This document shows positions 19,039 through 37,274 of a DNA stretch of 47,287 nt, one piece after another. A model generated the notes under the pieces. The model was given only the letters and a program-made list of their open reading frames with translations, did not search any database and was not told the origin of the DNA. The stretch comes from Desulfobacteraceae bacterium (GTDB lineage Bacteria > Desulfobacterota > DSM-4660 > Desulfatiglandales > HGW-15), in NCBI GenBank assembly GCA_050124735.1, contig JASFEQ010000001.1:1-47287 (forward strand). Direction: 5' to 3'. Both the position numbers and the translations under genes were made by a program. Position 1 is the stretch's first letter, and each line of letters opens with the position of its first letter.

Positions 19039-19059
19039 CCACAAACGGACGCGGACCAA

Positions 19060-19102: not shown

Positions 19103-19143
19103 CCGCTCAAATGAAGGTTATGGGTGAGTAAGGAGGCCAGATC

Positions 19144-19653: not shown

Positions 19654-19679
19654 TCACTTCTTAAGTTGGGAGGTTAGCC

Positions 19680-20936: not shown

Positions 20937-20993
20937 ATGAAGACAATGTTAGTGAATGATAGATAACTGAACAAGGAAAGAGAAGGTCTTGTT

Positions 20994-22450: not shown

Positions 22451-23488
22451 TCAAAAGTTGTTCATTAATTGGAAAACCTGCCTGATATCTATGTTCACGG
22501 GACACTGCTGGACGCAACGACCACATCCCGAGCATTGAACCCCATTGTTGTATTTGTCCACGTAATACTTCAGTTTGTGCATAAACCGCTGACGTACACG
22601 CTGGACCTTTCTCTCTCTCGGATTGTGACCGGAGGCGTGAAAGGTGAAAAGGGGAAACATGCAGGAATCCCAGTTCCTGATGCGATCTCCAGCCTTTCCC
22701 TGCACCTCATCCTGGATATCAAAGCACCAGCATGTGGGGCAAAGGTAGGTGCAGGTGCCGCAATTGATGCATGCAAAAGCCGTCTCTTCCCAGAAAGGTG
22801 CCTCAAAGACCTCCTTTACCGCCTTTGCACGCAACCTGTCTGTAGGAACCTCAGATGCTATTTTTTCCGCAGCGGCTGTGGCCAGTTCTTCAGCCTGTTC
22901 CAGCGTGGATTCATTGGGCGAAGATTTCTGTCCCGTCTTTTCTAAAAACGTCTCCCCTTTTTCGGTCAGGGCCCGGGCCAAAAAGGAATCTCCCAGGTCG
23001 AATAAGAGCACATCCAGCCCTTTTTCATCAAAGGGACCCCCGCCTACTGATGTACAGAAACATGTGGCACAGGGCTCGTTGCAGCCCAGTCCCACCAGCG
23101 TGGTCTCCCCAAAACGTTGAACCCACCACGGATCTCTGTATTCACGGTTGTCAAAATTGGCTCTAACGATCTGAAAGGCATGTGCATCGCAGGGCCTTAT
23201 ACCCACGATCGCTTGGGGGAAATAGTCTTTTGATGCCTCTTTTAGGATCATGGCATCAGGGCTGTTATTTTCGAGCGCGTATTCAAACATACGCTCCGAT
23301 TGGGGATAAACAAGAGACTTGGGGCTGAGGCGCGTGTTCCGGAACGTGAAGTCAGGCTTCTTCCCCTCGTCTATGGACCTGAAAACGTGAAAATCCCCGT
23401 CCTTGACCGGAACGATTATCTTATAAGCTTCTCGCAGGCCTTCTAAAGCCTTGGTCCATTCTTCATTGGTGAATAGCGTATTGCGCAT
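22451..23488 (-). CDS. 4Fe-4S protein, AsrA / sulfhydrogenase-beta / FlxB-like
   Basis: 345 aa with CINCGTCTYLCPTCWCFD and CSGCGRCVQQCPVNIDI. Adjacent to the FAD/NAD subunit, as in asrAB/hydBG/flxAB. Confidence 0.7.
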   Translation of the reverse strand: MRNTLFTNEEWTKALEGLREAYKIIVPVKDGDFHVFRSIDEGKKPDFTFRNTRLSPKSLVYPQSERMFEYALENNSPDAMILKEASKDYFPQAIVGIRPCDAHAFQIVRANFDNREYRDPWWVQRFGETTLVGLGCNEPCATCFCTSVGGGPFDEKGLDVLLFDLGDSFLARALTEKGETFLEKTGQKSSPNESTLEQAEELATAAAEKIASEVPTDRLRAKAVKEVFEAPFWEETAFACINCGTCTYLCPTCWCFDIQDEVQGKAGDRIRNWDSCMFPLFTFHASGHNPRERKVQRVRQRFMHKLKYYVDKYNNGVQCSGCGRCVQQCPVNIDIRQVFQLMNNF

Positions 23489-23604: not shown

Positions 23605-24555
23605 TTACCGAATGAACGCATTGTAATCATCTGGTCTGTATACGTCCAGGGGAGGTCTCTGATCCAGATCAAGCCCCGCCTCCCAGGAAAAGAGCTCCTG
23701 CGCGTCCTTGTTCAGTTTCTTGGTAAATTGGCGCACCGGAATACCCACCGGGCAAGCCCTCTCACAGGCGCCGCAGTCGGTGCATCGTCCGGCGCAGTGG
23801 TACGCCCGCAGAATGTGGAAGGTCATGGTGTCTATGGGATCATTACTCTTCCCCACCCATTGTGGCCTTGATTCATCCACAAAGCAGGTGGGGCAGTAAC
23901 ACAAAGGGCAGGCCTCTCTACACGCATAACACCGGATGCAGTTGGAAATGGCCCGCGTGAAAAATCCCCACTTCTGCTCACTACTCATCTTCTCAGTATT
24001 TTCCACATCTTTGTATGCAGCGACTTTTTTCTGCTCTTCAACGGGTTCGTCCACCATTTCATCATATTCAACAGGATTTCGATGGGTACAGATGGCGCAG
24101 TTGGTTTGCAGAAAATCCTTTTTGTCAAACTTCTCTTCAAAATCCCGGCCACTGACGGTGAATTGGCCGCCCCTTTCTGCCACCTCCAATATTTCCCTCA
24201 AACCCACAGCCCTTTCCACGGCTCTGTGATTGATCATGCCGGTGCAAGGGATCCCGACGATATAGAGCTGTTCTCGTCTTATCTGATTTTCTGTGACATG
24301 GGTGACTATATTTCTCGAATTGCAGCCATTCGCCACAATACCCATTCTATCTGTTCTCTTTGTGATATAGTTGCAGAGGTTGAGACCACAGTGGCTATCC
24401 CAGTGAAGAAGATTGACCTCTTCCGGGTTTCTGATGAGAACAGGCGCATTCATCATGGGCACCGTGCCTTTCTTGTACCCAATAAAGACGTCTACAGTAC
24501 CCTTTTCAAGAAGCTTCTTAGCGATTTCTCTGATCTTTTCACTGTATTCCAGCAT
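23605..24555 (-). CDS. 4Fe-4S protein, FlxC-like
   Basis: 316 aa with CIRCYACREACPLCYCPTCF and CTDCGACERACPVGIP. Its ATG overlaps the mvhD-like stop in TAATG. Confidence 0.65.
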   Translation of the reverse strand: MLEYSEKIREIAKKLLEKGTVDVFIGYKKGTVPMMNAPVLIRNPEEVNLLHWDSHCGLNLCNYITKRTDRMGIVANGCNSRNIVTHVTENQIRREQLYIVGIPCTGMINHRAVERAVGLREILEVAERGGQFTVSGRDFEEKFDKKDFLQTNCAICTHRNPVEYDEMVDEPVEEQKKVAAYKDVENTEKMSSEQKWGFFTRAISNCIRCYACREACPLCYCPTCFVDESRPQWVGKSNDPIDTMTFHILRAYHCAGRCTDCGACERACPVGIPVRQFTKKLNKDAQELFSWEAGLDLDQRPPLDVYRPDDYNAFIR

Positions 24556-24986
24556 TACGCCACCTTGGCTCTTTTCTTGATGAGGTATTTCGCGGGGCCC
24601 AGAGTTTTCACTTCCTCTGTGATGGCCTGCGCCACTTCAACAAATTTTGTGGCCTCGGCGGAAGATATCCAGGAGAAATGGAGCCTGCCCGCTTCGATGC
24701 CGATATGTTCCAAAAGCCCTTTCAATAAAGCGAATTTCCTTCGCGCGTAGTAATTACCCTCCAGGTAATGGCAGTCCCCTGGGTGTCACCCTGAAACCCA
24801 CACACCGTCTGATCCCTGCCGGAAGGCGGCCAGTATAAACTTAGGGCTTACCCGGCCAGAACAGGGAACCCTGATCATCCTAAAATTGGGGGGGTATTGA
24901 AGACGGCTCACACCAGCCAGGTCTGCCGCACCATAACTGCACCAGTAACAGAGAAAAGTCGTAATTTTTGGTTCCCAATCGTTCAT
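24555..24986 (-). CDS. mvhD: MvhD/FlxD-like 2Fe-2S protein, predicted selenoprotein (in-frame UGA at 24786-24788)
   Basis: MNDWEPKITTFLCYWCSYGAADLAGVSRLQYPPNFRMIRVPCSGRV...DGVWVSG-[UGA]-HPGDCHYLEGNYYARRKF...LGPAKYLIKKRAKVA. The UGA replaces the Cys of the conserved GC-x-x-GDCHY motif. The frame stays open for 76 more codons and ends in TAATG with the next gene. RBS ggggaga precedes the ATG at 24986. Confidence 0.8.
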
Positions 24987-25147
24987 CTTATCTCCCCATT
25001 GAGCAGGACCTAAAATGGGCTCACATTGTGGAATTATGGGTACCAAACTTGAAAGACAGTACCCGGACAAGATAACGCCCGAAACAGGAAAAAGGGCATG
25101 CGTAGGACGACTCAACAGCCCTCACTGTGAATTTTCAGAGGCCTTAT

Positions 25148-25411
25148 GAGACTGTCGAAAAACCGGCTTCTGAGAGGCTGATGGAAAATGTCCATATGCA
25201 AGTTGAGCCTTGCGAAATCCCGCTCTGTCGTAGATCCCGCTCGCGGGACGGGAGCTTCCGAAATCCCGAGGAATGAGGCGTACATATAGTACGCTGCAGT
25301 GACGAGGGATGAGGGTAACGCAGCCCTTCGATGCTTCGACGTTGCATAGCATCGACCCTGAGCTTGTCGAACGGCCTGCCGAACGGCAGATAGGCTTTTT
25401 CCGAAAGCCTC
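25148..25411. repeat. dispersed modular MITE-like repeat, copy B (264 bp)
   Basis: Near-identical to 45977-46265 and, minus two inserts, to 38636-38786. The imperfect terminal inverted repeats are gagactgtcgaaaaacc and ggctttttccgaaagcctc. Confidence 0.8.
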
Positions 25412-26181
25412 TATAGCATATATTGTTTTTCTAAGCTATGACTGATTTTCTCAGCCGATTCCTTAGTCGCCTTTATGACGCCCTCCATCTTATCGTCATT
25501 CAGACTCGTCTTGAATCCTACAACCCAGATGGCTGATATCAGATGATTCTCTGCCTTAATGGGCGAAGCTACTGCCCGGACGCCAAGGATGTACTCCTCA
25601 TAATCGGTAGCATATCCTTTCTCCCTCGCCATTCTTACCGCCTGAAGATACCCCTCCGGATCTGTAATCGAATGCTCTGTAAAAGAGGAAAGCCCCTTCT
25701 TGCGAATGATTTCCCTGGCCTTCTCATCGCGCATCGTCGCCAAAAAGACTTTTCCTACCGCCCCGGCCAGCAGAGGAATGGTGGCACCCCTTGTGGAAGT
25801 CATCTTGAGGTCTTGTTTGGACTCAACGATGTCGAGGATGGTGACGCGTTCTCCATTCAAGACGCCCACAAATACCGATTCCTCCGTCTTTTCCATCAAG
25901 TCTTCCATGACGGGTCTTACCAGGTCTTTTAGATCGATTTGGGAGTAGGCAGATCTCCCCAGTTCAAGGAGTGTGAGGCCCAATATATATCGCTTTGTCG
26001 TCGGGTCTCGTATGATGGTCCCCAACGCCTCCAGGGCCGAGGTAATTCCGTGGACGGTGCTTTTGCCGATTTCAAGACGCTTTGCCAGGTCACTGATGCC
26101 CAGTCCCCCATCGGTATCGGAGATGAGCTTCAGGATTTGAAAGGCCTTTTTTACGGAAGGGGCTTGATACTTTCCGGACAT
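25411..26181 (-). CDS. IclR-family transcriptional regulator
   Basis: N-terminal wHTH (AFQILKLISDTDGGLGISDLAKRLEIGKSTVHGITSAL) and a C-terminal IclR effector domain. 256 aa. Confidence 0.85.
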   Translation of the reverse strand: MSGKYQAPSVKKAFQILKLISDTDGGLGISDLAKRLEIGKSTVHGITSALEALGTIIRDPTTKRYILGLTLLELGRSAYSQIDLKDLVRPVMEDLMEKTEESVFVGVLNGERVTILDIVESKQDLKMTSTRGATIPLLAGAVGKVFLATMRDEKAREIIRKKGLSSFTEHSITDPEGYLQAVRMAREKGYATDYEEYILGVRAVASPIKAENHLISAIWVVGFKTSLNDDKMEGVIKATKESAEKISHSLEKQYML

Positions 26182-26307
26182 CGTTCTCCATGCTGAACAA
26201 ATTTGGACACTTTACATCCTTTACTATCTTCTGTCAACAACTATTTATTCCGAATCTATTTGCCCCATACTAACACGCTAGAGAACTGCGGGGGCGAGCT
26301 TTTCCCC

Positions 26308-26335
26308 TTGACAAAAGGCAGAAACCTGTTATCAT
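26308..26335 (+). promoter_or_regulatory. candidate sigma70 promoter TTGACA-N16-TATCAT for the hdrA-like operon
   Basis: ccTTGACAaaaggcagaaacctgtTATCATtcg lies about 105 nt upstream of the hdrA-like start. Confidence 0.4.
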
Positions 26336-26349
26336 TCGTTCAGCTTACT

Positions 26350-26365
26350 GTTCATAATGATGAAC
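26350..26365. promoter_or_regulatory. candidate operator palindrome GTTCAT-N4-ATGAAC
   Basis: gttcataatgatgaac lies 15 bp downstream of the putative -10, in the divergent iclR/hdrA region. Confidence 0.3.
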
Positions 26366-26441
26366 TTTAGAACCAAGGCCATGAAAGCAGGGCCGAGTCC
26401 TCGGATGAATCTCATCCCAGGCATCATAGGGGTTAGCTGCG

Positions 26442-27743
26442 TTGAACCAGAAAGCAGTGCTTGTCATAGGTGGTGGTATTGCAGGCATTCAGGCCTCCAT
26501 AGACCTGGCCAACATGGGCATTAAGGTCTATCTTGTTGAGAAGAAACCGAGCATAGGGGGAAGAATGGCCCAACTGGACAAGACCTTTCCCACCAATGAC
26601 TGTTCAATGTGTATCTTAGCCCCAAAGATGATCGAATGCGCCAACCATGACAATATCGAACTCCTGACCTATTCTGAACTGGCAGAACTGAAAGGCAAAC
26701 CGGGGAAATTTAAGGCCAAGGTCATAAAGAAGGCCCGTTTTGTGGAAGAGGACAAATGTGTCGGTTGTGGGGACTGCGCTGAAAAGTGTCCCACAAAGGC
26801 GGATGATGAGTTCAATACCGGCCTGGGCAAAAGGAAGGCGATTTATAAATATTTTCCCCAGGCAGTCCCCTCCACATATGTTATAGATCCAGATCATTGC
26901 CGAACGATGCAAGGAAAGAAATGCGGTGTCTGTGAAAAGATATGTAAGGCCAATGCCGTCAATTACGGACAGAAAGACAAGGTCTTGGCCCTCAATATAG
27001 GTGCCGTGGTTCTGGCCACCGGATTTGATCTCTATGATGTGGCTCCCTTGAAGGAATACGGCTGGGGAAGTATCAAGAATGTCATTACTGCCATGCAGTT
27101 TGAGAGAATGATATGCGCTTCCGGCCCCACCGGTGGGCATCTAAAGCGCCCTTCTGACGATAAGGAACCCAAGAGATTGGCTTTCATTCAATGTGTGGGA
27201 TCAAGGGATATCCGGCACAAAAGGTATTGTTCCGCCGTCTGCTGCATGCACGCCACAAAAGAGGCCATTCTCGCTCGTGAGCACTATCCAGGACTCACAT
27301 CAACTATATTTTACATGGATATGAGGGCAGCCGGAAAAGGTTTCCAGGAGTACGTTCGCAGGGCCAAAAGTCAGTATGCTGTGGAATATGTACGTGCAAG
27401 GCCGGGCCGGGTGACCGAGAATGAGGAGAATAACAATCCGGTCATTCATTATGAGGATACGATCAATAGAGCGTTCAACGCCAGAGAATTTGATATGGTC
27501 ATTCTATGCCAGGCCCTCGTACCGAGCGAGAGCAATCTCTCCGTCGCAGAAAATCTGGGTATTGAATTGGATGAGTTCGGTTTTATCTCCACACCCCAAG
27601 AACTCATCAACCCGTTCGGTACAACCAAGGAAGGAATCTTTGGATGTGGCTTTTGCCAATCTCCCATGGACGTACCCGATTCTGTTATCAGGGCATCGGC
27701 AGCAGCGTCCAAGGTGGCCGAAGTCATGGCACATGGTTCCTAA
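26442..27743 (+). CDS. hdrA: HdrA-like FAD/Fe-S flavoprotein (module 1)
   Basis: VLVIGGGIAGIQASIDLANMGIKVYLVEKKPSIGGRM...FPTNDCSMCIL; ferredoxin insert CVGCGDCAEKCP / CGVCEKICKANA; QCVGSRD...YCSAVCCMHATK; C-terminal GIFGCGFCQSPMDVPDSVIRASAAA. TTG start. Confidence 0.8.
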   Translation: MNQKAVLVIGGGIAGIQASIDLANMGIKVYLVEKKPSIGGRMAQLDKTFPTNDCSMCILAPKMIECANHDNIELLTYSELAELKGKPGKFKAKVIKKARFVEEDKCVGCGDCAEKCPTKADDEFNTGLGKRKAIYKYFPQAVPSTYVIDPDHCRTMQGKKCGVCEKICKANAVNYGQKDKVLALNIGAVVLATGFDLYDVAPLKEYGWGSIKNVITAMQFERMICASGPTGGHLKRPSDDKEPKRLAFIQCVGSRDIRHKRYCSAVCCMHATKEAILAREHYPGLTSTIFYMDMRAAGKGFQEYVRRAKSQYAVEYVRARPGRVTENEENNNPVIHYEDTINRAFNAREFDMVILCQALVPSESNLSVAENLGIELDEFGFISTPQELINPFGTTKEGIFGCGFCQSPMDVPDSVIRASAAASKVAEVMAHGS

Positions 27744-27757
27744 GGAAAGACGTCAAT

Positions 27758-29473
27758 ATGTCAATTAGGGTAGGGGTTTTTATTTGCCACTGTGGTACAA
27801 ACATCGGCGGTATCGTTGATGTACCGAAGGTTGTGGAGTATGCGCGGACCCTGCCCAACGTTGTTTATACCGAGGGCAATCTCTATACCTGCTCGGAGGA
27901 CGGCCTCTCTTCTATTCGGAACATTATAAAGGAACATCATCTAAATCGGGTGGTGGTCGCCTCTTGTACGCCGCGCACGCATGAACCCTTATTCAAAAGA
28001 AACTGCGAGTTAGCCGGCCTCAATAAATATCTGTTTGAGTTTGTCAACATCAGGGAGCATTGCTCCTGGGTCCATATGGACAGGCATGAGGACGCCACCC
28101 TAAAGGCGAAGGACCTGGTCCGCATGGGGGTGGCTAAGGTTACGCTGTTAAGGCCGCAAGAGGATTTGTCCACAGATGTTATAAAGGCATCCTTAGTCAT
28201 TGGGGGTGGAATTTCCGGTCTCTCAGCGGCCCTGACACTCGCCAACCAGGGCTATCAGGTTGAATTAATCGAAAAGAAAGATAGGCTGGGCGGGCTTTTG
28301 AGAGATATAAACAGGGTCTTTCCCACGAATGAGCCCTCTGCGGACCTCCTTGATCCCTTACTCAATGCCGTCTCCAATCACGAAAGGATAAAGGTCCACC
28401 TTGGTGTGGAACTGATCGGTGTGAATGGTTTTCTCGGGAATTTCAAGGCAGAGATCAAGAAAAAGGGTAAGACCCAAGAGTTGAAGGTGGGCACCATAAT
28501 TGTGGCTGTGGGCGCAGAGGAACTTAAGCCGACAGGGCTTTTTGGGTATGATCAGTTTCATAATGCGATGACGCAACTCGAATTCGAGCAGGAGTTCAAG
28601 TCAAATTACTCTGACTTGGACCGGGTTGTCATGATAAATTGCGTTGGCGCAAGGGTGGAGGAAAGGACATATTGCGGGCGGTTTTGTTGTATCACAGGCA
28701 TGAAGAATGCCATCCTCATAAAAGAGGCGAATCCGCAGGCGGAGATAAGTATTTTGCAAAGGGATATTATGGCCGGTGGAAAGGTCTTTGAGGACTATTA
28801 CAGAAGAGCACTCCAGATGGGGATTAGATTCATCCGGTATAATGTGGATCGGCCCCCCAAAATTTCGGGTTCCGATAATTTAGCCCAGAAGGTTGAAGTC
28901 TACCATGAGCTCATTGGAGAGAATATTGAAATCGACGTGGATCTCGTGCTCTTGAATACACCCCTCGTCCCCAGAGAGGACAACGAGCAACTTTCCAAGA
29001 TCATGAGAATACCCATTGGGAGTGAGGGATTTTTTTTGGAGGCCCATCAGAAACTCAGACCGGTTGAGTTCCCTTCTGACGGTCTGTTTATTGCAGGATG
29101 TGCACGTTATCCCACAGAGATAGCGGAGTGTATTGCGCAGGGCTATGCGGCTGCAGCCAAGGCGGCTATCCCCATGGCCCAGGGACAGGTGGTCAGCGAG
29201 GCTTTTACCGCTGAGGTTGATCCTTTGAAATGCTCTACCTGCGGGAGGTGTGTGGGCATCTGTCCTTTCGGTGCCATAGATTGGACCGATTGGAAGGATA
29301 TGATGGGAGAAAGCAGGAAAGTAGCCCTAGCCAACCCTACCGAGTGTAAGGGATGCGGCTTATGCGTGGCCTCTTGTCTCAGTGGTGCTATTCAGCTAAA
29401 GGGGTTTACTGATGAAGAGATTTTGGCCATGGTTAGTACCACGGCGGAAACTCATGAACTAATCGTAGCTTAG
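27758..29473 (+). CDS. hdrA: HdrA-like flavoprotein (module 2) with N-terminal Cys-rich domain and C-terminal 2x[4Fe-4S] ferredoxin
   Basis: VGVFICHCGTNIGG...ASCTPRTHEPLF...IREHCSWVH; second FAD fold LVIGGGISGLSAALTLANQGYQVELIEKKDRLGG; NCVGARVEERTYCGRFCCITGMK; CSTCGRCVGICPFGA and CKGCGLCVASCLSGA. The ATG at 27758 follows aaggaaag; the long ORF start at 27644 overlaps the previous gene. Confidence 0.8.
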   Translation: MSIRVGVFICHCGTNIGGIVDVPKVVEYARTLPNVVYTEGNLYTCSEDGLSSIRNIIKEHHLNRVVVASCTPRTHEPLFKRNCELAGLNKYLFEFVNIREHCSWVHMDRHEDATLKAKDLVRMGVAKVTLLRPQEDLSTDVIKASLVIGGGISGLSAALTLANQGYQVELIEKKDRLGGLLRDINRVFPTNEPSADLLDPLLNAVSNHERIKVHLGVELIGVNGFLGNFKAEIKKKGKTQELKVGTIIVAVGAEELKPTGLFGYDQFHNAMTQLEFEQEFKSNYSDLDRVVMINCVGARVEERTYCGRFCCITGMKNAILIKEANPQAEISILQRDIMAGGKVFEDYYRRALQMGIRFIRYNVDRPPKISGSDNLAQKVEVYHELIGENIEIDVDLVLLNTPLVPREDNEQLSKIMRIPIGSEGFFLEAHQKLRPVEFPSDGLFIAGCARYPTEIAECIAQGYAAAAKAAIPMAQGQVVSEAFTAEVDPLKCSTCGRCVGICPFGAIDWTDWKDMMGESRKVALANPTECKGCGLCVASCLSGAIQLKGFTDEEILAMVSTTAETHELIVA

Positions 29474-29497
29474 AGTCTCTATGGGAAGCAGGGGAAA

Positions 29498-29977
29498 TTG
29501 AAAGGACTGAAAACAGAGATTGAGCGGCTTATCCGAGAAAACAACCTCTATCTCTGTTTAGAGTGCGGTAAATGTTCTGCTGTCTGCCCGATGCTGGATT
29601 TCTATGGGGAATACGTCTACGACCGTTCCCCTAGAGGCGTCGTAGAGCGACTATCCCTTGACCCTGAGAAGATTGATGATGAAGCCCTGTGGTATTGCCT
29701 GGCCTGTAAAGAGTGCACTTTCTTTTGCCCCTGCGGGATCAATTTCCAAGGCTTTATGATGGAGCTAAGGGAACTTTTACTGCAACGTGGATATGACGAG
29801 CATGCCCTTTTTTGTCCTGTGTGTGGCCGTTACATCATGCCCAAAAAGGAATTTGAACATCTACAAAAAGGGGAGAGTTCTGAAAAGATAGGCGAGCTTC
29901 TGTCCGTGTGTGAAAGGTGCAAGAAAAACAGTTATGTGGACATCCTATACAAGGTGTGCTCTGGGCACAAGGGATAA
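29498..29977 (+). CDS. HdrC-like 2x[4Fe-4S] protein with C-terminal Cys-pair tail
   Basis: CLECGKCSAVCP and CLACKECTFFCP in the HdrC spacing, then CPVCG...CERC. The TTG start is uncertain. Confidence 0.6.
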   Translation: MKGLKTEIERLIRENNLYLCLECGKCSAVCPMLDFYGEYVYDRSPRGVVERLSLDPEKIDDEALWYCLACKECTFFCPCGINFQGFMMELRELLLQRGYDEHALFCPVCGRYIMPKKEFEHLQKGESSEKIGELLSVCERCKKNSYVDILYKVCSGHKG

Positions 29978-30010
29978 GGCGTGAATCAAGCGTTTGGTCG
30001 CTGAAGATAG

Positions 30011-30303
30011 CTAGTGCGCTGTACCTTAAATTTCAATACTAGAAGACTCTGTCTTCCCGTCCATTGAGCGATGGCCCATTCCTTCAAGACGATATCTAAA
30101 GCGTCCTGGGGAGGTGGTCTGATCTTAGAGGGTTTAAATGGACTATGACTTGGTCGGGACGACACATTCTGCCAGGGGTTTTAGGGTGTAAACCCTCAAA
30201 GATCAGACCACGGCGATGCTCAGTGGAATTTCTTCTGAGATATCGTCTTTCAGGAACAGGCCATCACTCCAAACGATAGAAATATATGATGCAGTGCACT
30301 AGA
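30011..30303. repeat. ~293-bp imperfect foldback (long inverted-repeat) element
   Basis: Three nested arm pairs: ctagtgcgctg/cagtgcactag (30011/30293); tgagcgatggcccattccttcaagacgatatct versus agatatcgtctttcaggaacaggccatcactcc; gtggtctgatcttagagggttta (30114-30136) versus taaaccctcaaagatcagaccac (30189-30211). Confidence 0.7.
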
Positions 30304-30396
30304 TATATGGAAACAGGCCAAGCGGTTTCTTAATCGCTCGTCTGCCTTTAAGCTCACTTTTAATATTTCTGCTAGGAATAGAAAGGAGAATACGTT

Positions 30397-30666
30397 ATGG
30401 CAATTGATGAAGAGAAACTGTCAGGGGCCGAGAGTCTCAGGAAGACCAGGACCTATGGCAAATTCAGGTGCCATAATCCAAGCTGTATGGGAAGAATTGA
30501 GGTTGCGCCAGGGGCCAAGCTCTGCAAGTGCCCCGAATGCGGTCTTGAGTTCCGTGTATCTTGGATTCGCCCTGATTTTCCTCGCATACGGGGTCCCGTA
30601 TGGGATGTGAACAAAAGAATCGCCCAAGAGACTGTGGACAAAAAGGGCGGCGGAAAAAAGCAGTAA
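30397..30666 (+). CDS. small zinc-ribbon protein
   Basis: 89 aa. CHNPSC...CKCPEC forms four Cys in a ribbon arrangement, followed by a basic tail. RBS aaaggagaa. Ends 18 nt before the AOR gene. Confidence 0.55.
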   Translation: MAIDEEKLSGAESLRKTRTYGKFRCHNPSCMGRIEVAPGAKLCKCPECGLEFRVSWIRPDFPRIRGPVWDVNKRIAQETVDKKGGGKKQ

Positions 30667-30684
30667 AGAAAGGGGAATAAAAAA

Positions 30685-32625
30685 ATGGCATTAGATAGGA
30701 AGGTAGCTTACATCGATCTTTCCAAGGGTGAGATTGAAACCAGGCCCATTCCGCTTGAGGTTCGAAAGAAATTCCTCGGCGGTAGAGGGCTGGATGCATA
30801 TTTGCTTTATAACCATACGAAGAAAGGTTGTAACCCGATCGGCCCTGGAAATGCGCTCATGGTGAGCGGCGGTATCTTATGCGGGACCTGCGCTTCTGCC
30901 ACATCCAGAACGCACGTCATGGCAAAATCTCCGCTCTCAAATTTACTCGGCAGCACCAATATGGGGGGATTTTTTTCTCCCGAAATGGCTTGGGCCGGCT
31001 TTCACCATCTGGTCATCAAGGGCAAGGCGAAAAAGCCGTGCTATCTCTGGATCCACAACGGTGAAATAGAGATACGAGATGCCGACAACCTGTGGGGCAA
31101 GTCTGTTACGGATACGCAATGGGCCATTAGGGAAGAATTGGGAGATGAAGACATCAAGAGCATGGTGATCGGCCCGGCGGGTGAGAACCTGGTCAGGTTC
31201 GCCAATGTGATGACAGGTATCAAGAACGCTGGTGGTAGAACGGGTATGGGTTGCGTGATGGGGTCCAAAAACCTCAAGGCCATAGCTGCCAGAGGAACGA
31301 TGGACATAAAGATTGCCCATCCCGTCGACGCCTTAGAGTACAACAAGCGATTCATTGATCAAATCACAAGTTCCAAAGTAAACCAAACCATGGGAACGCT
31401 GGGGACACCTTTCATCTGGGGAGCGACCAATTCCTGGGGCGGTGTAAGGACCAGGAATTTCCAGCACAACCAGTGTGAATATGCGGATGACATCGAACCG
31501 GAGAGACTGGATGAGATCGCTGCGGAAACCATGGGAGAGCATCACATGGTCGGGTGCTTTGGCTGTCAGGTGCACTGCCGTGCACAATATAAGATTCCGT
31601 CCGGTCCCTATGCAGGGACATATGATGAAGGACCTGAGTACACCACGCAATGTGCATTTGGTGCACAACCGGACACCAAGAATGCCGTGACCGTACTGAC
31701 TGGGAATCATCTGGTTAATCAGTTTGGCATGGATTGCCTGGAAACGGGAAGTCTTATCTCCTGGGCCATGGAGCTCTATGAAAAGGGAATCCTCACCAGC
31801 AAAGAGACTGACGGCATTGATCTGAGATTCGGAAATGATGAAGCCCTCCTGGAGATGGTCGAACGCATTTGCTATAGGAAGGGCTTTCTCGGAGATACAC
31901 TGGCTGATGGAGGCATTTTGGCCGCCGAAAAGATTGGGAAGGACTCCTTTGAATATCTCGTTCAGGTCAAGGGGATGAACAACCTGAACTCGGACGAGCG
32001 GGCAACGCCAGCGCTGGCACTCAACGTGGCCACAGCCTCAAGGGGTTCAGATCATTTGAGGAGCCGCCCTGCTATCGACCTCTACCATTTGCCCGAGGAA
32101 GTCCTGAGGAAGATATACAGCAATCCTGTGCCCTACGATGGGCCGTTGACCTCTGAGCATACCGATTATGAGGGAAAGCCTTGGCAGGTTTTTTGGCAAG
32201 AGACTTGTTTCATGGGCGTGGACGCTCTCGGGATTTGCAAATATCACACCACCTTTCTCGGGCCAACCCTTCCCAATTTTGAAGATTGGTCCAAGGTGCT
32301 CTATTACAATACGGGGCTGGAATTGACTCCTTTAGAAATCTGGACCATTGCTGAGAGGTGCAACAACATGGAGAGACTCTTCAATCTCAGGGAGGGATTG
32401 ATAAGGGATGACTTGATGAAGGGTGACATGCTTTGTCACCGCTATTTTGATGAACCGTGCACGCGCGGAGCGCCTGATGTTATTGGAATGACCATAGATC
32501 GGGAAAAGTTCAACAAGATGCTTGATGAATTCTACGAGCACCACGGCTGGGACAAAAACGGTGTTCCTCTTCCCAAGACTCTTAAGAGACTTGACATAGA
32601 GAAAGAGCCATCCCACCTGCTCTAA
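30685..32625 (+). CDS. tungsten/molybdopterin aldehyde:ferredoxin oxidoreductase (AOR) family enzyme
   Basis: 646 aa. AOR N-terminal domain (KVAYIDLSKGEIETRPIP...FLGGRGL), 4Fe-4S ligands CFGCQVHC (CxxCxxxC) plus DALGICKY, and RGSDHLRS. Confidence 0.85.
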   Translation: MALDRKVAYIDLSKGEIETRPIPLEVRKKFLGGRGLDAYLLYNHTKKGCNPIGPGNALMVSGGILCGTCASATSRTHVMAKSPLSNLLGSTNMGGFFSPEMAWAGFHHLVIKGKAKKPCYLWIHNGEIEIRDADNLWGKSVTDTQWAIREELGDEDIKSMVIGPAGENLVRFANVMTGIKNAGGRTGMGCVMGSKNLKAIAARGTMDIKIAHPVDALEYNKRFIDQITSSKVNQTMGTLGTPFIWGATNSWGGVRTRNFQHNQCEYADDIEPERLDEIAAETMGEHHMVGCFGCQVHCRAQYKIPSGPYAGTYDEGPEYTTQCAFGAQPDTKNAVTVLTGNHLVNQFGMDCLETGSLISWAMELYEKGILTSKETDGIDLRFGNDEALLEMVERICYRKGFLGDTLADGGILAAEKIGKDSFEYLVQVKGMNNLNSDERATPALALNVATASRGSDHLRSRPAIDLYHLPEEVLRKIYSNPVPYDGPLTSEHTDYEGKPWQVFWQETCFMGVDALGICKYHTTFLGPTLPNFEDWSKVLYYNTGLELTPLEIWTIAERCNNMERLFNLREGLIRDDLMKGDMLCHRYFDEPCTRGAPDVIGMTIDREKFNKMLDEFYEHHGWDKNGVPLPKTLKRLDIEKEPSHLL

Positions 32626-32646
32626 TGACTGGAAAGGAGAAGATCC

Positions 32647-33144
32647 ATGGAGAAAATGCTGATGATAGATTACCAGAAGTGCACTGGCTGCCGACTCTGC
32701 GAGCTGGTCTGCTCAGTCATGCATGACGGTGTTTCAAACCCTGCCAGAAGTCGTATAAAGGTCATGAAGTGGGAGTCAGAGGGATTGTATATCCCCATGT
32801 CCTGTCAGCAATGTGAGGATGCGCCATGCATGAATGTGTGCCCTGTGAAGGCCATCTCTCGCGATGAGGACTACGGTTTCTTACTCGTTGATTATGATGT
32901 GTGCATTGGTTGCCGCAGCTGCGTGGCTGTCTGTCCTTTTGGCGCCATGAATTATAACGACCTGGACAAGAAGGTATTCAAATGCGACCTCTGCGGGGGC
33001 GAACCCCAATGTGTGCGGTTTTGCGATGTAAAAGCCGTGGATTATGTGGATGCAGCAAGACTAAGTCTACACAAGAAAAAAGATGCGGCACGGCGCTTAT
33101 CCGCCGCACAGAGGGAGGCCTCAGCCTTACAGGCTGCCCTGTAA
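32647..33144 (+). CDS. four-cluster [4Fe-4S] electron-transfer subunit (AorA/BamC/DmsB-like)
   Basis: 16 Cys in four motifs: CTGCRLCELVC, CQQCEDAPCMNVCP, CIGCRSCVAVCP, CDLCGGEPQCVRFC. Confidence 0.8.
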   Translation: MEKMLMIDYQKCTGCRLCELVCSVMHDGVSNPARSRIKVMKWESEGLYIPMSCQQCEDAPCMNVCPVKAISRDEDYGFLLVDYDVCIGCRSCVAVCPFGAMNYNDLDKKVFKCDLCGGEPQCVRFCDVKAVDYVDAARLSLHKKKDAARRLSAAQREASALQAAL

Positions 33145-33193
33145 TTTCCATTTTGGCCTTCCATGCATCTTGAGGGTTTTGTCCAAAATGCCA

Positions 33194-33229
33194 AAAAGAG
33201 GTTTATGGCCTCGGCCATAAACCTCTTTT
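33194..33229. terminator. bidirectional stem-loop terminator between convergent genes
   Basis: aaaagaggtttatggcc-tc-ggccataaacctctttt forms a stem of about 15 bp, flanked by an A-run on one side and a T-run on the other. Confidence 0.6.
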
Positions 33230-33252
33230 CTCATTCCTAGGGCGTCTACGCC

Positions 33253-33525
33253 TTACCCACCGGCAAGCATGAGAATAAGTTGGATTTCGTCCCCATCCTT
33301 GACTGACTTGGCCAGTTCTTCCGGATAAGCACTTTCATTGTTCACGTAGACTTCTACCACATTGAGTAGTTTACCCTTTTTATCAAACAGGCCTTCTTTC
33401 ATGCCGGGATACTGCTGCACCAACTGATCGAGGCAATCGCCCACCGTCCCACCCTCGACCTCCACCATCTCTAAGCCATCGGTATAGGTACGATGGGTCT
33501 TATGGATGTTCACTTTTACACTCAC
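33253..33525 (-). CDS. MoaD/ThiS-family ubiquitin-fold sulfur-carrier protein (C-terminal GG)
   Basis: 90 aa ending LILMLAGG. GTG start after ggaaggag. Comparable to the MoaD-like maturation factor encoded in AOR operons. Confidence 0.7.
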   Translation of the reverse strand: MSVKVNIHKTHRTYTDGLEMVEVEGGTVGDCLDQLVQQYPGMKEGLFDKKGKLLNVVEVYVNNESAYPEELAKSVKDGDEIQLILMLAGG

Positions 33526-33735
33526 ATTTTACTCCTTCCTGGTCAAATGGCCACAATGCGCACAATGAGGGTTCTTCTTGATCTTAAATCCTCTGAACTC
33601 TAATTTCAACCCTAGGTTCCCCTGGTTTCTTATGGATAAAAGGTAATTCTCAGTATAACATCGGCAAGAGGTCTGTTTCAATGCCAACAGAACGGCCCAA
33701 ATGAAGAAAGAAGTTGAAAACCTAACAGATTTGCC

Positions 33736-35181
33736 TTGATGATTGGACACAAGATGTCACTTTCCGAAGCACAGATAAAGCCCAGAAAAAGAATGGCCAT
33801 TATCGCCAGCTACTTCAAGGGGGAGACCTATGGCCTCCTGGGGCCACAGATGGCTGCGACCGTTATCCTGGAGAATACGCCCTATGATTGTATTGTCGTA
33901 ACAGTCGCGCGTGAAGATGATAAAACCATCCTCAAAAGGGTCTTGGCTGAGTATTTCGGGGCGCAAAGGCCCATCATTGGTTTCTCCTTGTTGAGCGGGC
34001 GCCAAGACCTCTTCGCCCTCGCTCAGGAACTCAAGGATGAAGGAGCCCTCACCATCTTAGCGGGCCCTCAGGCGGATGTGGACTACCTGGGGGAGACGGA
34101 CTGGCAGTATCATTCCCACCGGTTTCAAGGGCTCTCTGAAAATTTTTCCTTCTCCCTCCCAGGACCGGCAGAGCAGGCCATCCACCTCTTGGAAAATCTA
34201 GGTAGAGATGGCGGGAAGGGAAGCCCGGGACTACTATGCTTTCGAAAGAATGGTGAAATAATTCAAAATCCCAAGCAGGGATGGGATGAGAAGTTTTTGG
34301 GTGAGATGAGATGGAATAATATCTATATAATAATGAAAACAGGTCTCGTCCCCCTGAAGATCCGCACCGGCCAAGTATTGCAACAGATAGGATGTCCCTA
34401 TGCCGCCCAAGAGCGGTCTGTTGAGATAGACGATCCCGTCTCTTTGGGGAACGGGGCAAAAAAGGTCATACTCCCTTTCAGTGGATGTGCCTTCTGCGAT
34501 GTGGCCGTTGATAAGGGTCTTTACGGTACATTGGAGATGGAGACGGTTGTTCGTCAGATCCGCTGCTTACCAGAAAGGGGGGATGGCAGGAAAATCCCCT
34601 TTGAATTGATCAATGAGAATCCTCTACCCAGGCTGCCACGCTTATTGACAGCGCTCAGGGAAACAAAAATCAGCGTATCCCAGATAAACCTTATTATGCG
34701 GGCAGACTGGTTTCTGAAGGGGGAGAATCATTTGCGCCAGGCCCTGAAATTGGCCAGGGGCATGGGTGTGAGTATCCTTTTGGCATCGGTGGGCTTTGAG
34801 TCTTTCGATGATCGGATCTTGGGCAATTTAAACAAAGGCTTGAGTGTGGAGACGAACCTGCGTGCCATTCGCCTGATGAGGAAACTCAAAGAGGAATTCC
34901 CTTGGCAATGGGGATATTCCAGAAAAGAGGGGGCCATCCATGGGTTCATCCATCCCACGCCATGGGATACGCAAGAGACCTTCGCCAATATCCAAAAAAC
35001 CATAGACCAGTATGACCTCGCCATTGATATCCTCCCTCAGCATAGCACCCCTCTCATCATCCACCACGCCTCAAGGTTAGGGGATTGGATCCGGGAAATC
35101 GAACAGAGGGATGGGATCCAGTTCAGACGACATGGATCGATCATCGAGTGGTGGAGGGTTGGAGACAGATTCACACTCTGA
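33736..35181 (+). CDS. B12-binding-like / radical-SAM-like protein with non-canonical Cys spacing (tentative)
   Basis: N-terminal Rossmann-like segment (MAIIASYF...IIGFSLLSG...LTILAGPQA). GCPY (C220) and GCAFC (C251, C254) are separated by 30 residues. GFESFDDRILGNLNKG resembles the radical-SAM GxES...KG motif. Start uncertain (33739, 33754 or 33793). Confidence 0.45.
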   Translation: MMIGHKMSLSEAQIKPRKRMAIIASYFKGETYGLLGPQMAATVILENTPYDCIVVTVAREDDKTILKRVLAEYFGAQRPIIGFSLLSGRQDLFALAQELKDEGALTILAGPQADVDYLGETDWQYHSHRFQGLSENFSFSLPGPAEQAIHLLENLGRDGGKGSPGLLCFRKNGEIIQNPKQGWDEKFLGEMRWNNIYIIMKTGLVPLKIRTGQVLQQIGCPYAAQERSVEIDDPVSLGNGAKKVILPFSGCAFCDVAVDKGLYGTLEMETVVRQIRCLPERGDGRKIPFELINENPLPRLPRLLTALRETKISVSQINLIMRADWFLKGENHLRQALKLARGMGVSILLASVGFESFDDRILGNLNKGLSVETNLRAIRLMRKLKEEFPWQWGYSRKEGAIHGFIHPTPWDTQETFANIQKTIDQYDLAIDILPQHSTPLIIHHASRLGDWIREIEQRDGIQFRRHGSIIEWWRVGDRFTL

Positions 35182-35630: not shown

Positions 35631-36119
35631 ATGACCTCAAAGACGCTTTCCGTGGATCCCGCCAAGTGCAATGGCTGCAAAGACTGTGAGCTCGTTTGCG
35701 CCAAGAGACATAACGGCGTTAGTAAGCCGACGCGGAGTCGCATACGCATCGTTCAAGGGGATACTCATGACGGATTCTATCTGCCCATGACGTGCCAGCA
35801 ATGCGAGAATCCTCCCTGCCTAGCAGCATGCCCAAATAATGCCATATCTCGGGACAATGCCTTGAACAGAGTGATGATCCGGGACGCACTCTGTATCGGA
35901 TGCCAGATGTGCGTTTCCGCATGTCCGTTCGGAGCCATGGCATTTGATAACGATTTGGGACTGGCCTTTAAGTGTGATCTTTGTGACGGGAATCCCGAGT
36001 GTGTCCGTGTCTGTGAACCGAAGGCCTTAGAATACGTGGAGGGGCACAAGCTTCATTATCCCCGGATCCGCGACTCGGCGGAGAGGCACTATCAGGTTAT
36101 GCGCCGCATGGTGAGTTAG
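35631..36119 (+). CDS. four-cluster [4Fe-4S] ferredoxin, paralog of 32647..33144
   Basis: CNGCKDCELVC, CQQCENPPCLAACP, CIGCQMCVSACP, CDLCDGNPECVRVC. Collinear with the AOR-linked Fe-S subunit. Confidence 0.8.
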   Translation: MTSKTLSVDPAKCNGCKDCELVCAKRHNGVSKPTRSRIRIVQGDTHDGFYLPMTCQQCENPPCLAACPNNAISRDNALNRVMIRDALCIGCQMCVSACPFGAMAFDNDLGLAFKCDLCDGNPECVRVCEPKALEYVEGHKLHYPRIRDSAERHYQVMRRMVS

Positions 36120-36198
36120 TTACAAAAACCCCTGCCCGCTCGCTCATCATCTGAGCATCGCAATGAGAAAGTGTGAGAAATATCGAGGAGACCATACC

Positions 36199-36603
36199 AT
36201 GTCCTTTTTTCGAGTAAACAACAGGTGCAACGGCTGTTTAGCCTGCGTTCAGAACTGCCCTGCGAACGCCTTGAGGGCTACGGACCAAGGAGAGGAAAGA
36301 ACGCTCCTGCATAACATGACCCTTTGCGCCCGATGCGGCAATTGTTGGAGAATATGCCCCCAGAAAGCCATAGAATTCAACCATTTATTAGATGGTGCCT
36401 GGGATGAGGTGGCCAGCATGAAGCTTGTCCGCTGTATGATTTGTGGTGAGCCCCTCTATACCTTAGATTTCAAAGAAACACTCGCCGAAAGGGTTACTCA
36501 TAACGTTGAGTCCCTGTGTCCCCATCATCGTCAGGCCCTTTCCCTCACGGCATGGAAACATCTTGCCCCCGCCTTGAGTGAAACAAAGGGAGTCCAAAAA
36601 TGA
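36199..36603 (+). CDS. 2x[4Fe-4S] ferredoxin-domain protein with C-terminal Cys/His ribbon
   Basis: CNGCLACVQNCP, CARCGNCWRICP, then CMICGEP...CPHH. The ATG at 36199 follows gaggag. The stop overlaps the next start (ATGA). Confidence 0.65.
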   Translation: MSFFRVNNRCNGCLACVQNCPANALRATDQGEERTLLHNMTLCARCGNCWRICPQKAIEFNHLLDGAWDEVASMKLVRCMICGEPLYTLDFKETLAERVTHNVESLCPHHRQALSLTAWKHLAPALSETKGVQK

Positions 36604-37274
36604 TTGTAGGGAAGCGCAAACCGATTGAGGATATTGCCAATTCCATAACGGACTTTCGGAAAGTCCTGATACTGGGCTGTGGGACCTGTGTAACCGTCTG
36701 CCTTACCGGTGGCGATAAGGAAGCTCGAGCCTTGGCCCGAGATCTTGCCAGTGGCAGATATTTCAAGGAAAATGCTCCAACTTTTCAAGTGGATACGATC
36801 GAGAGGCAGTGCGAGTGGGATCTGGTGAAAACCCATCTCCATTTACCGCCGGATACCGATGCCATATTGTCTCTGGCATGCGGAGCGGGTGTGCAGACCT
36901 TGGCCGATGTTTTCAGCCAATTGCCTGTGATACCGGCCCTAAATACAACCTTTCTTGGCGCCCTTGACGAGCCGGGCATCTGGCGTGAAAAATGCCAAGG
37001 ATGTGGGGATTGTATCGTGGCCGATACGGGCGGGATATGCCCGGTCTCACGTTGTGCCAAGCGGCTCTTAAACGGTCCTTGCGGCGGCTCAGTTCAGGGT
37101 AAGTGCGAAATAAAGGGGGACGTGGACTGCGCCTGGCATCTCATAATCAATCGTCTCAAGGCACTGGGCAGGATCGACGATTATGAAAAGATCCATCCTC
37201 CAAAGGACTGGTCTACTGAGAGGGGAGCGGGCCCCCGAAAATTGGAGAGCATTGCGCAACCAGACTTGCCCTGA
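36600..37274 (+). CDS. MetV-like protein (methylene-THF reductase C-terminal-domain family)
   Basis: LILGCGTCVTVC, CQGCGDC and the hallmark CPVSRCAKRLLNGPCGGS motif. 224 aa. No metF in the window. Confidence 0.65.
   Translation: MIVGKRKPIEDIANSITDFRKVLILGCGTCVTVCLTGGDKEARALARDLASGRYFKENAPTFQVDTIERQCEWDLVKTHLHLPPDTDAILSLACGAGVQTLADVFSQLPVIPALNTTFLGALDEPGIWREKCQGCGDCIVADTGGICPVSRCAKRLLNGPCGGSVQGKCEIKGDVDCAWHLIINRLKALGRIDDYEKIHPPKDWSTERGAGPRKLESIAQPDLP

Follow-up and report, generated by a model that had tools for sequence, protein, structure and literature searches.

Positions 26308-33525 of a 47,287-nucleotide stretch of DNA from a Desulfobacteraceae bacterium (contig JASFEQ010000001.1; the whole stretch is called the window here) encode two HdrA-like flavoproteins, an HdrC-like protein, a zinc-ribbon protein, an enzyme of the AOR family with its ferredoxin subunit and a small sulfur-carrier protein, next to a divergent operon for MvhD- and Flx-like proteins. 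We consider it slightly more probable than the contrary that these genes encode a Flx/Hdr-type flavin-based bifurcating (or confurcating) complex in which a tungsten (W) enzyme takes the place of HdrB, and that this complex would probably act in the catabolism of phenolic compounds. The catalytic subunit fits neither BamB nor the canonical aldehyde oxidoreductases, and its association with Hdr and Flx genes recurs in relatives.

Gene organization of the locus

The gene list is based on the open reading frame (ORF) map of the window and on scans against Pfam and NCBIfam families. On the + strand, genes for HdrA1 (26442-27743, 433 aa; NCBIfam HdrA2, 525 bits) and HdrA2 (27758-29473, 571 aa) are followed by those for an HdrC-like protein (29498-29977, 159 aa with 14 Cys; Pfam Fer4_8 and NCBIfam HdrC models at about 1e-11) and a four-Cys zinc-ribbon protein of 89 aa (Znr; 30397-30666), the latter without Pfam or NCBIfam match. 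Next come the 646-aa AOR/WOR-family catalytic subunit of WorL type (30685-32625; Pfam AFOR_N 2.4e-73 and AFOR_C 1.1e-102) and, with 21 bp between stop and start, a 165-aa ferredoxin subunit of WorS/AorA type with exactly 16 Cys and thus a predicted four [4Fe-4S] clusters (Fd4; 32647-33144; Pfam Fer4_11 and related families). A MoaD/ThiS-like small sulfur-carrier protein is encoded convergently on the - strand (33253-33525; Pfam ThiS, NCBIfam moaD_arch and SAMP1). The first-pass annotation of this DNA had proposed the same order (hdrA, hdrA, hdrC, zinc ribbon, AOR, 16-Cys ferredoxin, convergent MoaD), and its coordinates held exactly or nearly so. It had also reported no HdrD/BamD and no NuoEFG-like genes; in agreement, no HdrB/HdrD (CCG-domain) or NuoEFG-like gene was detected among the scanned window ORFs of at least 140 aa, and no ETF gene was found in the locus.

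Catalytic subunit

The AFOR_N (PF02730) and AFOR_C (PF01314) domains together span residues 6-638 of the 646-aa protein. Residue conservation was scored over 120 close homologues, with MAFFT and phmmer used for alignment. The [4Fe-4S] ligands C291, C294, C298 and C518 (DALGIC) are invariant in all 120 and align with the CxxCxxxC and DSAGLC motifs of PfAOR, and the metal at the pterin site is probably tungsten. Among proteins of known structure, the best scores were obtained with PfAOR (313 bits, full length) and Acetomicrobium mobile WOR (309 bits), ahead of AorB (262 bits) and FOR (239 bits). BamB scored 210 bits in a match confined to the N-terminal two thirds, and a genuine BamB from a Syntrophus metagenome-assembled genome (MAG), encoded at L072 (relative loci are given L numbers), reaches 820 bits against 4z3w.

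Hallmarks of BamB are Cys322, a protein ligand of W conserved throughout BamB, and the Zn-binding and proton-relay residues Glu251, His255, Glu257 and His260 (PMC12096430). The first-pass annotation had proposed a check for such BamB-specific active-site residues, and they are absent: the Cys322 column holds Asp (MAFFT), and the four Zn/proton-relay positions are Ile, Thr, Ser and Arg in a region of AOR-like character (GTLGTPFIW). A nearby cysteine, C323, was tried as a BamB-type W ligand, the stretch EGPEY-TTQ-C323 resembling EGLPTY-MMK-C322 by eye; it was rejected, as this position is Gly in 116 of the 120 homologues and falls outside the C322 column of the MAFFT alignment. The 16 Cys of Fd4 suffice for four clusters, compared with three in BamC.

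In aldehyde-oxidising members of the family, the second-shell residues Thr243, Glu313, Tyr427 and His448 (PfAOR numbering) are conserved (PMC12096430, PMC13328260). The equivalents of Thr243 and His448 are kept in the 646-aa protein; Glu313 is replaced by Thr320 and Tyr427 by Ser436 throughout the 120 close homologues. We reject an assignment to AorB-type enzymes or AOR sensu stricto because of these two replacements. An Arg in the MAFFT column of PfAOR Tyr452 was not used, since phmmer puts a conserved Tyr of the query there instead.

A neighbor-joining (NJ) tree of 157 sequences, built without bootstrap and used for coarse placement only, puts the clade of the 646-aa protein inside a group of 30 uncharacterised proteins that all lack Glu where PfAOR has Glu313. 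PfAOR, AmWOR1 and AorB join that group only at a node spanning 144 of the 157 tips, and the largest distances are to BamB and YdhV. The clade itself is very conserved (78-96% identity among the retrieved relatives), and hundreds of 646-aa proteins are 80-94% identical to the query; the next relatives at 50% clustering are 62%, 49% and 46% identical. Relatives are encoded in 474 species-representative genomes, and the best 80 carriers are mostly Desulfobacterota MAGs (Desulfobacterales, Desulfatiglandales), some of them labelled marine or sediment.

We conclude that the protein is a member of a distinct AOR-family clade, neither BamB nor AOR sensu stricto. The first-pass annotation had hesitated between a BamB-clade and an AOR-clade enzyme. 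The former fails on every defining feature tested (Cys322, Zn/relay residues, cluster number, neighbourhood, score and tree); the latter is contradicted by the loss of Glu313 and Tyr427 and by the NJ grouping apart from PfAOR, WOR1 and AorB. A place among generic aldehyde oxidoreductases, which together with expression independent of the hdrA-like genes the same annotation regarded as grounds for abandoning its proposal, was likewise not what the NJ tree returned, the protein falling within the 30-member uncharacterised group.

HdrA and HdrC proteins

The anatomy of the two flavoproteins was assessed by comparison with M. wolfeii HdrA (5odc). HdrA1 matches residues 145-568 (465 bits), a range that covers the inserted ferredoxin domain as well as the TrxR-like FAD core; HdrA1 has neither the N-terminal domain nor the C-terminal ferredoxin domain, and keeps the C194xxC197 pair, Glu356 and Lys409. 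HdrA2 matches residues 5-239 and 318-639 (448 bits): besides the TrxR-like FAD core, it has the N-terminal domain and, at the C-terminus, the 2x[4Fe-4S] domain. HdrA2 is without the inserted ferredoxin domain and has lost C194 and C197, and it keeps Lys409, which we take to be the Lys near FAD N5 in M. wolfeii HdrA. Both paralogues retain a CVGSRD...YCSxVCC-type motif. Judged by these matches, HdrA1 and HdrA2 together supply one copy of each HdrA domain. For HdrA2, a 609-aa ORF opening at 27644 runs into the upstream gene, and the 571-aa start yields an HdrA N-terminus (MSIRVGVFICHCG).

The HdrC-like protein combines two CxxCxxCxxxCP motifs with a C-terminal four-Cys motif (CPVC...CERC), which suggests an added zinc-ribbon or rubredoxin-like element. 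It has no membrane domain, and its match to qmoC is weak (5e-8). In L004 and L061, the usual place of HdrA1 upstream of HdrA2-HdrC-Znr-AOR is occupied by an 899-aa homologue (e.g. L061 4437-7136) with an inserted GltD/NfnB-like NAD(P)H module (Fer4_20 + Pyr_redox_2), which by its domains would provide a second route to pyridine nucleotides.

MvhD and the Flx operon

The - strand operon is headed by the gene for an IclR-family regulator (25411-26181; Pfam HTH_IclR and IclR_C), which is divergent from hdrA1. It continues with genes for an MvhD/FlxD-like [2Fe-2S] adaptor (24555-24986; Pfam FlpD), a FlxC-like protein (23605-24555; FrhB_N + Fer4), a FlxB-like protein (22451-23488; Fer4_22, with matches to sulfhydrogenase beta and AsrA) and a FlxA-like protein (21581-22423; FAD_binding_6, NAD_binding_1 and DHODB Fe-S domain, with matches to sulfhydrogenase gamma and AsrB); mvhD and the flxC-like gene overlap by one base. 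The domain content matches that of the FlxABCD system, a correspondence of domain architecture only. The FlxC-, FlxB- and FlxA-like proteins make up a putative NAD(P)H-linked FAD/iron-sulfur module.

The first-pass annotation had noted a selenocysteine (Sec)-containing MvhD nearby. This was borne out by the gene reading from 24986 to 24555 (-), where a TGA (24788-24786) lies in frame within the motif VSG-U-HPGDCHY (U67) and the frame reads through this codon to a stop. A minimum free energy fold of a 57-nt stretch that begins shortly ahead of the UGA (24735-24791, -) gave no convincing SECIS-like hairpin (z = +0.7), and Sec is predicted from just the motif and the read-through ORF. Genes for SelB lie near the AOR unit in the related loci L016, L020, L024 and L061.

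Association of the Hdr and Flx genes with the AOR unit

The functional link between the AOR enzyme and the Hdr/Flx genes that the first-pass annotation proposed is supported by synteny, by the layout of an independent assembly, by a joint absence and by one tight operon. The order HdrA1-HdrA2-HdrC-Znr-AOR-Fd is found in at least 16 relative loci (among them L001-L004, L008, L014, L015, L061, L082, L084, L086-L088, L101 and L129), with HdrA2 identity down to 64%. Nine of the closest metagenomic relatives seen from the HdrA2 side reach past hdrC; six of these go on to Znr, or to Znr-AOR on contigs long enough to show it (69-91% identity), and the other three (66-68%) are not followed by Znr, one of them going on to MvhD-FlxC.

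The independent assembly L084, 91-96% identical, has the complete arrangement of the window: UbiX, then FlxA FlxB FlxC MvhD IclR on the - strand, then HdrA1 HdrA2 HdrC Znr AOR Fd4. Locus L083, whose AOR is 89% identical, reads PpsB-UbiD-RR-CoA ligase-UPF0261-HD-UbiX, IclR, HdrC-Znr-AOR-Fd4: it has neither hdrA1A2 nor mvhD-flxCBA, and HdrC is kept beside the AOR unit. Since L083 is without both gene sets and the window and L084 carry both, hdrA1A2 and mvhD-flx come and go together.

Metagenomic locus L092 carries a tight operon with the order AOR-Fd4-HdrA1-HdrA2-MvhD-FlxC-FlxB-FlxA-HdrC; its AOR is 58% identical and has the same EGPEYT / SDER / SDH (Thr/Ser) signature. In L093 and L094, HdrA1-HdrA2-MvhD-FlxCBA-HdrC lies about 3 kb from a convergent MoaD/Fd4 pair, with an AOR fragment next in L093, and the Flx genes are contiguous with HdrA1A2 in L089 and L092-L094. 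Locus L093 (324-12857) also has two NuoF-like genes, one NuoE-like gene and genes resembling the N-terminus of NuoG ahead of HdrA2-MvhD-FlxCBA-HdrC, and one NuoG-like piece (Fer2_4 + Fer4) is fused to HdrA1. Bfu-type and HdrA-type modules thus stand side by side there, as in class II benzoyl-CoA reductase (BCR), close to a convergent AOR-Fd pair.

Gene neighbourhood across relatives

Window proteins were mapped onto the best 80 of the 474 carrier loci, and all flanking ORFs were clustered. The constant core is Znr-AOR-Fd4. Znr lies directly upstream of AOR in nearly all loci whose flank extends that far, and Fd4 follows the AOR gene in 77 of 81 regions, the window included. Znr, with the conserved motifs RCHNPxC...KCxxC...PRIRGPVW, may be a small subunit or a maturation factor. 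In about 50 of the 80 loci, iclR is the divergent neighbour of the AOR unit. Other partners recur as well: MoaD in 25 loci, an EutA-like ATPase in 27, a radical-SAM-like protein of about 475 aa in 20, a MetV-like DUF5981 protein in 21 and a small di-cluster ferredoxin in 16, and molybdopterin biosynthesis genes also recur near the unit.

The interval between iclR and Znr is a slot of changing content. Many loci have nothing there; 18 have a gene for a protein of about 340 aa whose N-terminus matches the TmcC/HmcE membrane-anchor family and whose C-terminus has two [4Fe-4S] motifs; in three the slot holds MTHFR-like, ferredoxin and MetV-like genes; and in 8 of 80 it holds HdrA1-HdrA2-HdrC. Because the content of the slot varies between loci, the hdrA genes are best read as an accessory, exchangeable module outside the constant core. 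The first-pass annotation had called for a search for gene-neighbourhood conservation and had treated the hdrA genes as part of one unit. The search found Znr-AOR-Fd4 conserved and the Hdr module in part of the loci, so the hdrA genes do not belong to the conserved unit: they stand next to AOR in only 8 of the best 80 loci, others having the membrane anchor or nothing.

Upstream of the locus, beyond the flx genes, the window carries a phenylphosphate synthase/carboxylase-type operon on the + strand (14479-21554; Pfam) that encodes PpsA-like, PpsB-like, UbiD, receiver-domain, UPF0261 and UbiX proteins. Its UbiD scores above the NCBIfam equivalog cut-off for phenylphosphate carboxylase beta (PpcB), at 506 against 469 bits. 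The link between the locus and this adjacent operon, which the first-pass annotation had pointed out, recurs in relatives: pps/ubiD/ubiX-type genes lie near the AOR unit in L005, L009, L010, L014, L043, L051, L055, L067, L083 and L084. In the Syntrophus MAG locus L072 (6735-12460), Znr-AOR-Fd4 is immediately preceded, on the same strand, by a true bamB and a bamC-like gene. The window operon has stand-alone receiver-domain and UPF0261 proteins and is without the CoA ligase and HD-domain genes of the L083, L009 and L067 operons.

Downstream of the locus, a radical-SAM-like protein of 481 aa is encoded at 33736-35181 (+); in the Pfam/NCBIfam scans it gave weak matches to B12-type radical-SAM families. 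In relatives, a gene for an EutA-like ATPase (PF06277) follows AOR-Fd4 directly in 27 loci; the window has the radical-SAM-like gene and not the EutA-like one. Loci L008, L009, L011, L014 and L077 are among the examples with these genes, and a role of the radical-SAM-like or EutA-like protein in cofactor or enzyme maturation is one possibility. Further downstream on the + strand, the same scans identified a second 16-Cys ferredoxin (35631-36119), a 2x[4Fe-4S] protein of 146 aa (36163-36603) and a MetV-like DUF5981 protein (36600-37274). The families of the radical-SAM-like protein and of these three proteins each recur near the AOR clade in 16-21 loci. The three (35631-37274 in the window) form a recurrent trio, whose first member is swapped elsewhere for an MTHFR-like or homocysteine-S-methyltransferase-like protein; L005 (7520-9614), L052 and L075 are examples from relatives. 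The window itself has no MetF-like gene.

A 73-aa ORF adjoining moaD (33529-33750, -) is a ThiF/MoeB-like remnant: L082 has the intact protein, of 247 aa, and only the last 27 residues of the ORF match the C-terminus of that protein. Elsewhere in the window, 1330-3378 encodes a 682-aa molybdopterin oxidoreductase of the DMSO-reductase family with an N-terminal Fe4S4 domain, and near it a truncated LysR-type gene (7704-8156, 150 aa) retains only the start of the substrate domain.

Intergenic regions and an inserted element

In promoter and terminator scans that performed near chance level, a sigma-70-like site (TTGACA-16-TATCAT with an upstream TG) was found at 26308 (+), the position at which the first-pass annotation had begun the locus, and promoter-like hexamers were found on both strands of the iclR/hdrA1 spacer (26182-26441). 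Rfam returned zero matches in the window at gathering thresholds.

The gap between hdrC and Znr measures 420 bp in the window, compared with about 125 bp in L001, L082 and L084. It is enlarged because of a 292-bp palindromic insertion (30011-30302, no strand assigned) that resembles a miniature inverted-repeat transposable element (MITE), with inverted repeats and the terminal inverted repeat CTAGTGCRCTG. The element is not present in those three loci, and within the window the terminal repeat occurs just at its two ends, i.e. the element is single-copy. As RNA it is predicted to fold into a hairpin of -129 kcal/mol (z = -8.5).

Relative to the near-identical L084, the window also has about 417 bp more at 24996-25412, between the iclR stop and the mvhD start, where the gap in L084 is about 45 bp. 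Clear terminal inverted repeats were not found in this stretch, which has one weak 27-nt inverted repeat. Locus L084 in turn carries extra DNA between flxA and flxB and between flxB and flxC.

Comparison with known systems

Among W enzymes, only class II BCR is known to run on a bifurcating module of the HdrA type. With BamBCDEFGHI of Geobacter metallireducens, the locus shares an AOR-family W subunit with a poly-ferredoxin subunit, two unequal HdrA halves, an MvhD-type Sec adaptor, an NAD(H)-linked input module and an aromatic-degradation context. It differs in that its catalytic subunit lies outside the BamB clade, has neither Cys322 nor the Zn/proton-relay site and is more AOR-like; its ferredoxin has four clusters rather than three, its HdrA halves are separate rather than fused, and its HdrC stands alone, without the HdrB-like part of BamD. 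The zinc-ribbon protein is extra, and the NAD(P)H input is Flx-type (sulfhydrogenase beta/gamma-like) where BamGHI is of NuoEFG/Bfu type. According to a 2026 cryo-EM preprint on class II BCR, BamE is a fused asymmetric HdrA dimer in which one FAD bifurcates; its C-terminal ferredoxin domain takes electrons in, with MvhD(Sec) as adaptor, its inserted ferredoxin domain leads to the W subunits, and the cluster of its TrxR domain leads to the HdrBC-like BamD. The window encodes this scheme as separate proteins, with the Flx-type input and the lone HdrC noted above.

AorABC of Aromatoleum aromaticum (Class III) resembles the locus in its four-cluster AorA-type subunit, its AOR-family catalytic subunit and a nearby MoaD-like gene. 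The flavoproteins of the locus are HdrA-like, in place of an AorC-type FAD subunit; the locus protein is a distant relative of AorB (262 bits), and Glu313 and Tyr427 are missing from it. The zinc-ribbon protein is not known from the AorABC operon. The description of the locus in the first-pass annotation as a mixture of the BCR and AorABC patterns agrees with these comparisons: a four-cluster subunit and a MoaD-like protein occur with HdrA, MvhD(Sec) and Flx in place of an AorC-type flavoprotein.

The FlxABCD-HdrABC complex of Desulfovibrio is an NADH dehydrogenase/heterodisulfide reductase. The locus shares with it FlxA-, FlxB- and FlxC-like proteins, an MvhD-like FlxD, HdrA and HdrC. It differs in being without HdrB, and so without a DsrC/heterodisulfide site, having an AOR-family enzyme and ferredoxin subunit instead; its HdrA is split into two complementary paralogues, and its flx genes are divergent, in the order D-C-B-A. 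QmoABC combines a pair of HdrA-like flavoproteins of different size, about 430 and 570+ aa, with an HdrC-like iron-sulfur protein, QmoC, that has a membrane haem-b domain, and is encoded with apr/sat genes. The locus resembles it in the unequal HdrA-like pair followed by an HdrC-like protein, and differs in having no HdrE-like membrane domain on the HdrC-like protein, no MvhD domain fused to the larger HdrA-like protein and no apr/sat context, neither apr nor sat having been seen among the window genes.

WOR1 of A. mobile and Eubacterium limosum (Class IV, WorLS + WorABC) is likewise built on WorL and a four-cluster WorS and coupled to an NAD and ferredoxin module. That module is of Bfu type (NuoEFG-like, with FMN and iron-sulfur clusters), compared with the HdrA-type FAD, MvhD and Flx proteins of the locus, and A. 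mobile WorL (9mqx) keeps Glu at the Glu313 position; the locus protein has both Glu313 and Tyr427 replaced. NuoEFG-like genes of the WorABC kind appear only in the distant locus L093. The current WOR classification (PMC13328260) recognizes WorL alone (Class I), WorL with a four-cluster WorS (Class II), an additional FAD subunit (Class III), an additional Bfu-type WorABC, or BCR (Class IV), and membrane-associated enzymes of clade 41 (Class V); Hdr-like partners are mentioned for BCR only. The core of the locus fits Class II, and its Hdr/MvhD/Flx wiring falls outside the scheme; the TmcC-type wiring of relatives would be covered only if the clade of the locus is clade 41. Full-text literature searches turned up no account of this clade or of AOR joined to Flx/Hdr genes, and papers on phenol and aniline degradation by D. 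anilini make no mention of such genes.

Proposed electron flow and alternatives

In the complex that we propose, the new-clade AOR subunit, the four-cluster ferredoxin subunit and the zinc-ribbon protein would form the core, a soluble multi-subunit pterin oxidoreductase, joined through the HdrC-like di-cluster protein to the asymmetric HdrA1/HdrA2 pair. The divergent operon would supply the Sec-containing MvhD adaptor and the NAD(P)H-binding FlxCBA. Electrons would pass between NAD(P)(H) and the bifurcating FAD of HdrA1/HdrA2 by way of Flx and MvhD(Sec); one branch would lead to ferredoxin, and the other would reach the W centre by way of HdrC and then the four-cluster subunit. The IclR regulator encoded between the two operons probably controls both. 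Gene content, domain anatomy, active-site replacements, the clade and the recurring gene association are observed directly; complex formation, bifurcation, the branch of the W enzyme, its metal, its substrate and the direction of the reaction we infer from sequence and gene context. Recurrent pps/ppcB/ubiX neighbours, CoA ligases and the bamBC pair of L072 point to a step in anaerobic phenolic or aromatic catabolism. A more specific form of the proposal, possible if rather doubtful, is that this is a second kind of HdrA-coupled W enzyme, with a Thr/Ser active site and an obligate zinc-ribbon partner, sitting in the HdrB position and catalyzing a non-aldehyde reaction on a phenol-derived intermediate. 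The reaction could be the reductive loss of a para-hydroxy or para-amino substituent, or some other reduction at mid to high potential, and would be coupled to the reduction of ferredoxin by NAD(P)H; other lineages would plug the same core into the quinone pool through the TmcC-like anchor.

The position of the W enzyme is where a mechanism like that of class II BCR would differ. There, NAD(P)H and/or ferredoxin electrons would be split at HdrA1, and the low-potential electron would travel from its inserted ferredoxin domain by way of the four-cluster subunit to the W centre. It would drive a very negative reduction of the kind that the first-pass annotation had suggested, either dearomatisation (of an aryl-CoA or aryl acid) or reduction of the newly made aromatic acid to its aldehyde, and the high-potential electron would exit through HdrC. 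The BCR structure offers the precedent, with the inserted domain of BamE feeding BamBC and MvhD with Sec as adaptor, and the bamBC pair just ahead of the unit in L072, the NuoEFG-like modules ahead of HdrA1A2-MvhD-FlxCBA-HdrC near the AOR-Fd pair in L093 and the adjoining carboxylation operon agree with it. We nevertheless regard it as distinctly unlikely: the high-potential acceptor was not found, HdrB, HdrD and ETF genes being missing from the locus, and BamB active-site features are absent. A high-potential, HdrB-like branch is a slightly better fit because the protein that remains with the AOR unit when hdrA is absent is HdrC and not HdrA1, because a presumably quinone-linked anchor of TmcC type can take the place of the Hdr module, which suits a couple of middle or high potential better than one below -580 mV, and because the residues of aldehyde chemistry are replaced. 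Still less credible, to the point of being very improbable, is that the 646-aa protein is itself an orthologue or paralogue of BamB and hence a subunit of a strict dearomatising aryl-CoA reductase. Its length (646 vs 653 aa), the aromatic context and the HdrA-like and MvhD(Sec) neighbours would suit such a protein; its partial 210-bit match, set against 313 bits over the full length for PfAOR and 820 bits for the L072 BamB, the Gly at C323 in 116 of 120 homologues, the missing Zn/relay residues, the four-cluster partner and a position outside the BamB branch do not.

Several observations weigh against a dedicated Hdr-coupled complex. The Hdr module is optional, most loci being without it; close HdrA2 relatives in L089-L091 have no adjacent AOR; and the mvhD-flx operon lies beside iclR in the window and L084 only. 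Most of the syntenic loci are close relatives, so their conservation is partly shared ancestry. The first-pass annotation had allowed that the hdrA transcript might end before 30397. The near-chance terminator scan showed no + strand terminator-like site between hdrC and Znr, and the hairpin-forming 292-bp insertion in that gap could uncouple transcription in the window genome. MetV- and MTHFR-like proteins are classical partners of HdrA and MvhD, and the Hdr module might serve the recurring proteins of this kind instead. There is an alternative that we think unlikely, in which the enzyme is an ordinary, IclR-regulated Class II ferredoxin-linked aldehyde (e.g. aromatic aldehyde) oxidoreductase, and hdrA1A2C with mvhD-flxCBA is an independent NADH/ferredoxin module that serves MetV/MTHFR-like proteins or DsrC and is its neighbour by chance in one lineage. 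The core is complete without Hdr genes in most loci, Class II is defined by just such a pairing of WorL with a four-cluster WorS (PMC13328260), the top structural matches are PfAOR and A. mobile WOR, HdrA1A2C-MvhD-Flx modules without AOR exist (L089-L091), and MetV-like genes recur close by. This account is opposed by the L092 operon, which interleaves AOR-Fd with a full Hdr/MvhD/Flx set, by the joint gain or loss of hdrA1A2 and mvhD-flx around the unit (L083 compared with the window and L084), and by the replacement in all 120 homologues of Glu313 and Tyr427, the residues implicated in aldehyde oxidation.

Significance

If the Flx/Hdr-coupled complex works as proposed, it would add a new catalytic partner for HdrA-type bifurcation, and one W-enzyme core would be wired to either a soluble bifurcating module or a membrane anchor. 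The locus offers a concrete target for purification, with testable predictions on subunits, metal (W, Se) and cofactors. Should the more specific, non-aldehyde form of the proposal be true, one step of anaerobic phenol catabolism would conserve energy. The complex, if it works in this way, may reveal a missing or alternative step in the anaerobic degradation of phenolic compounds by sulfate reducers.

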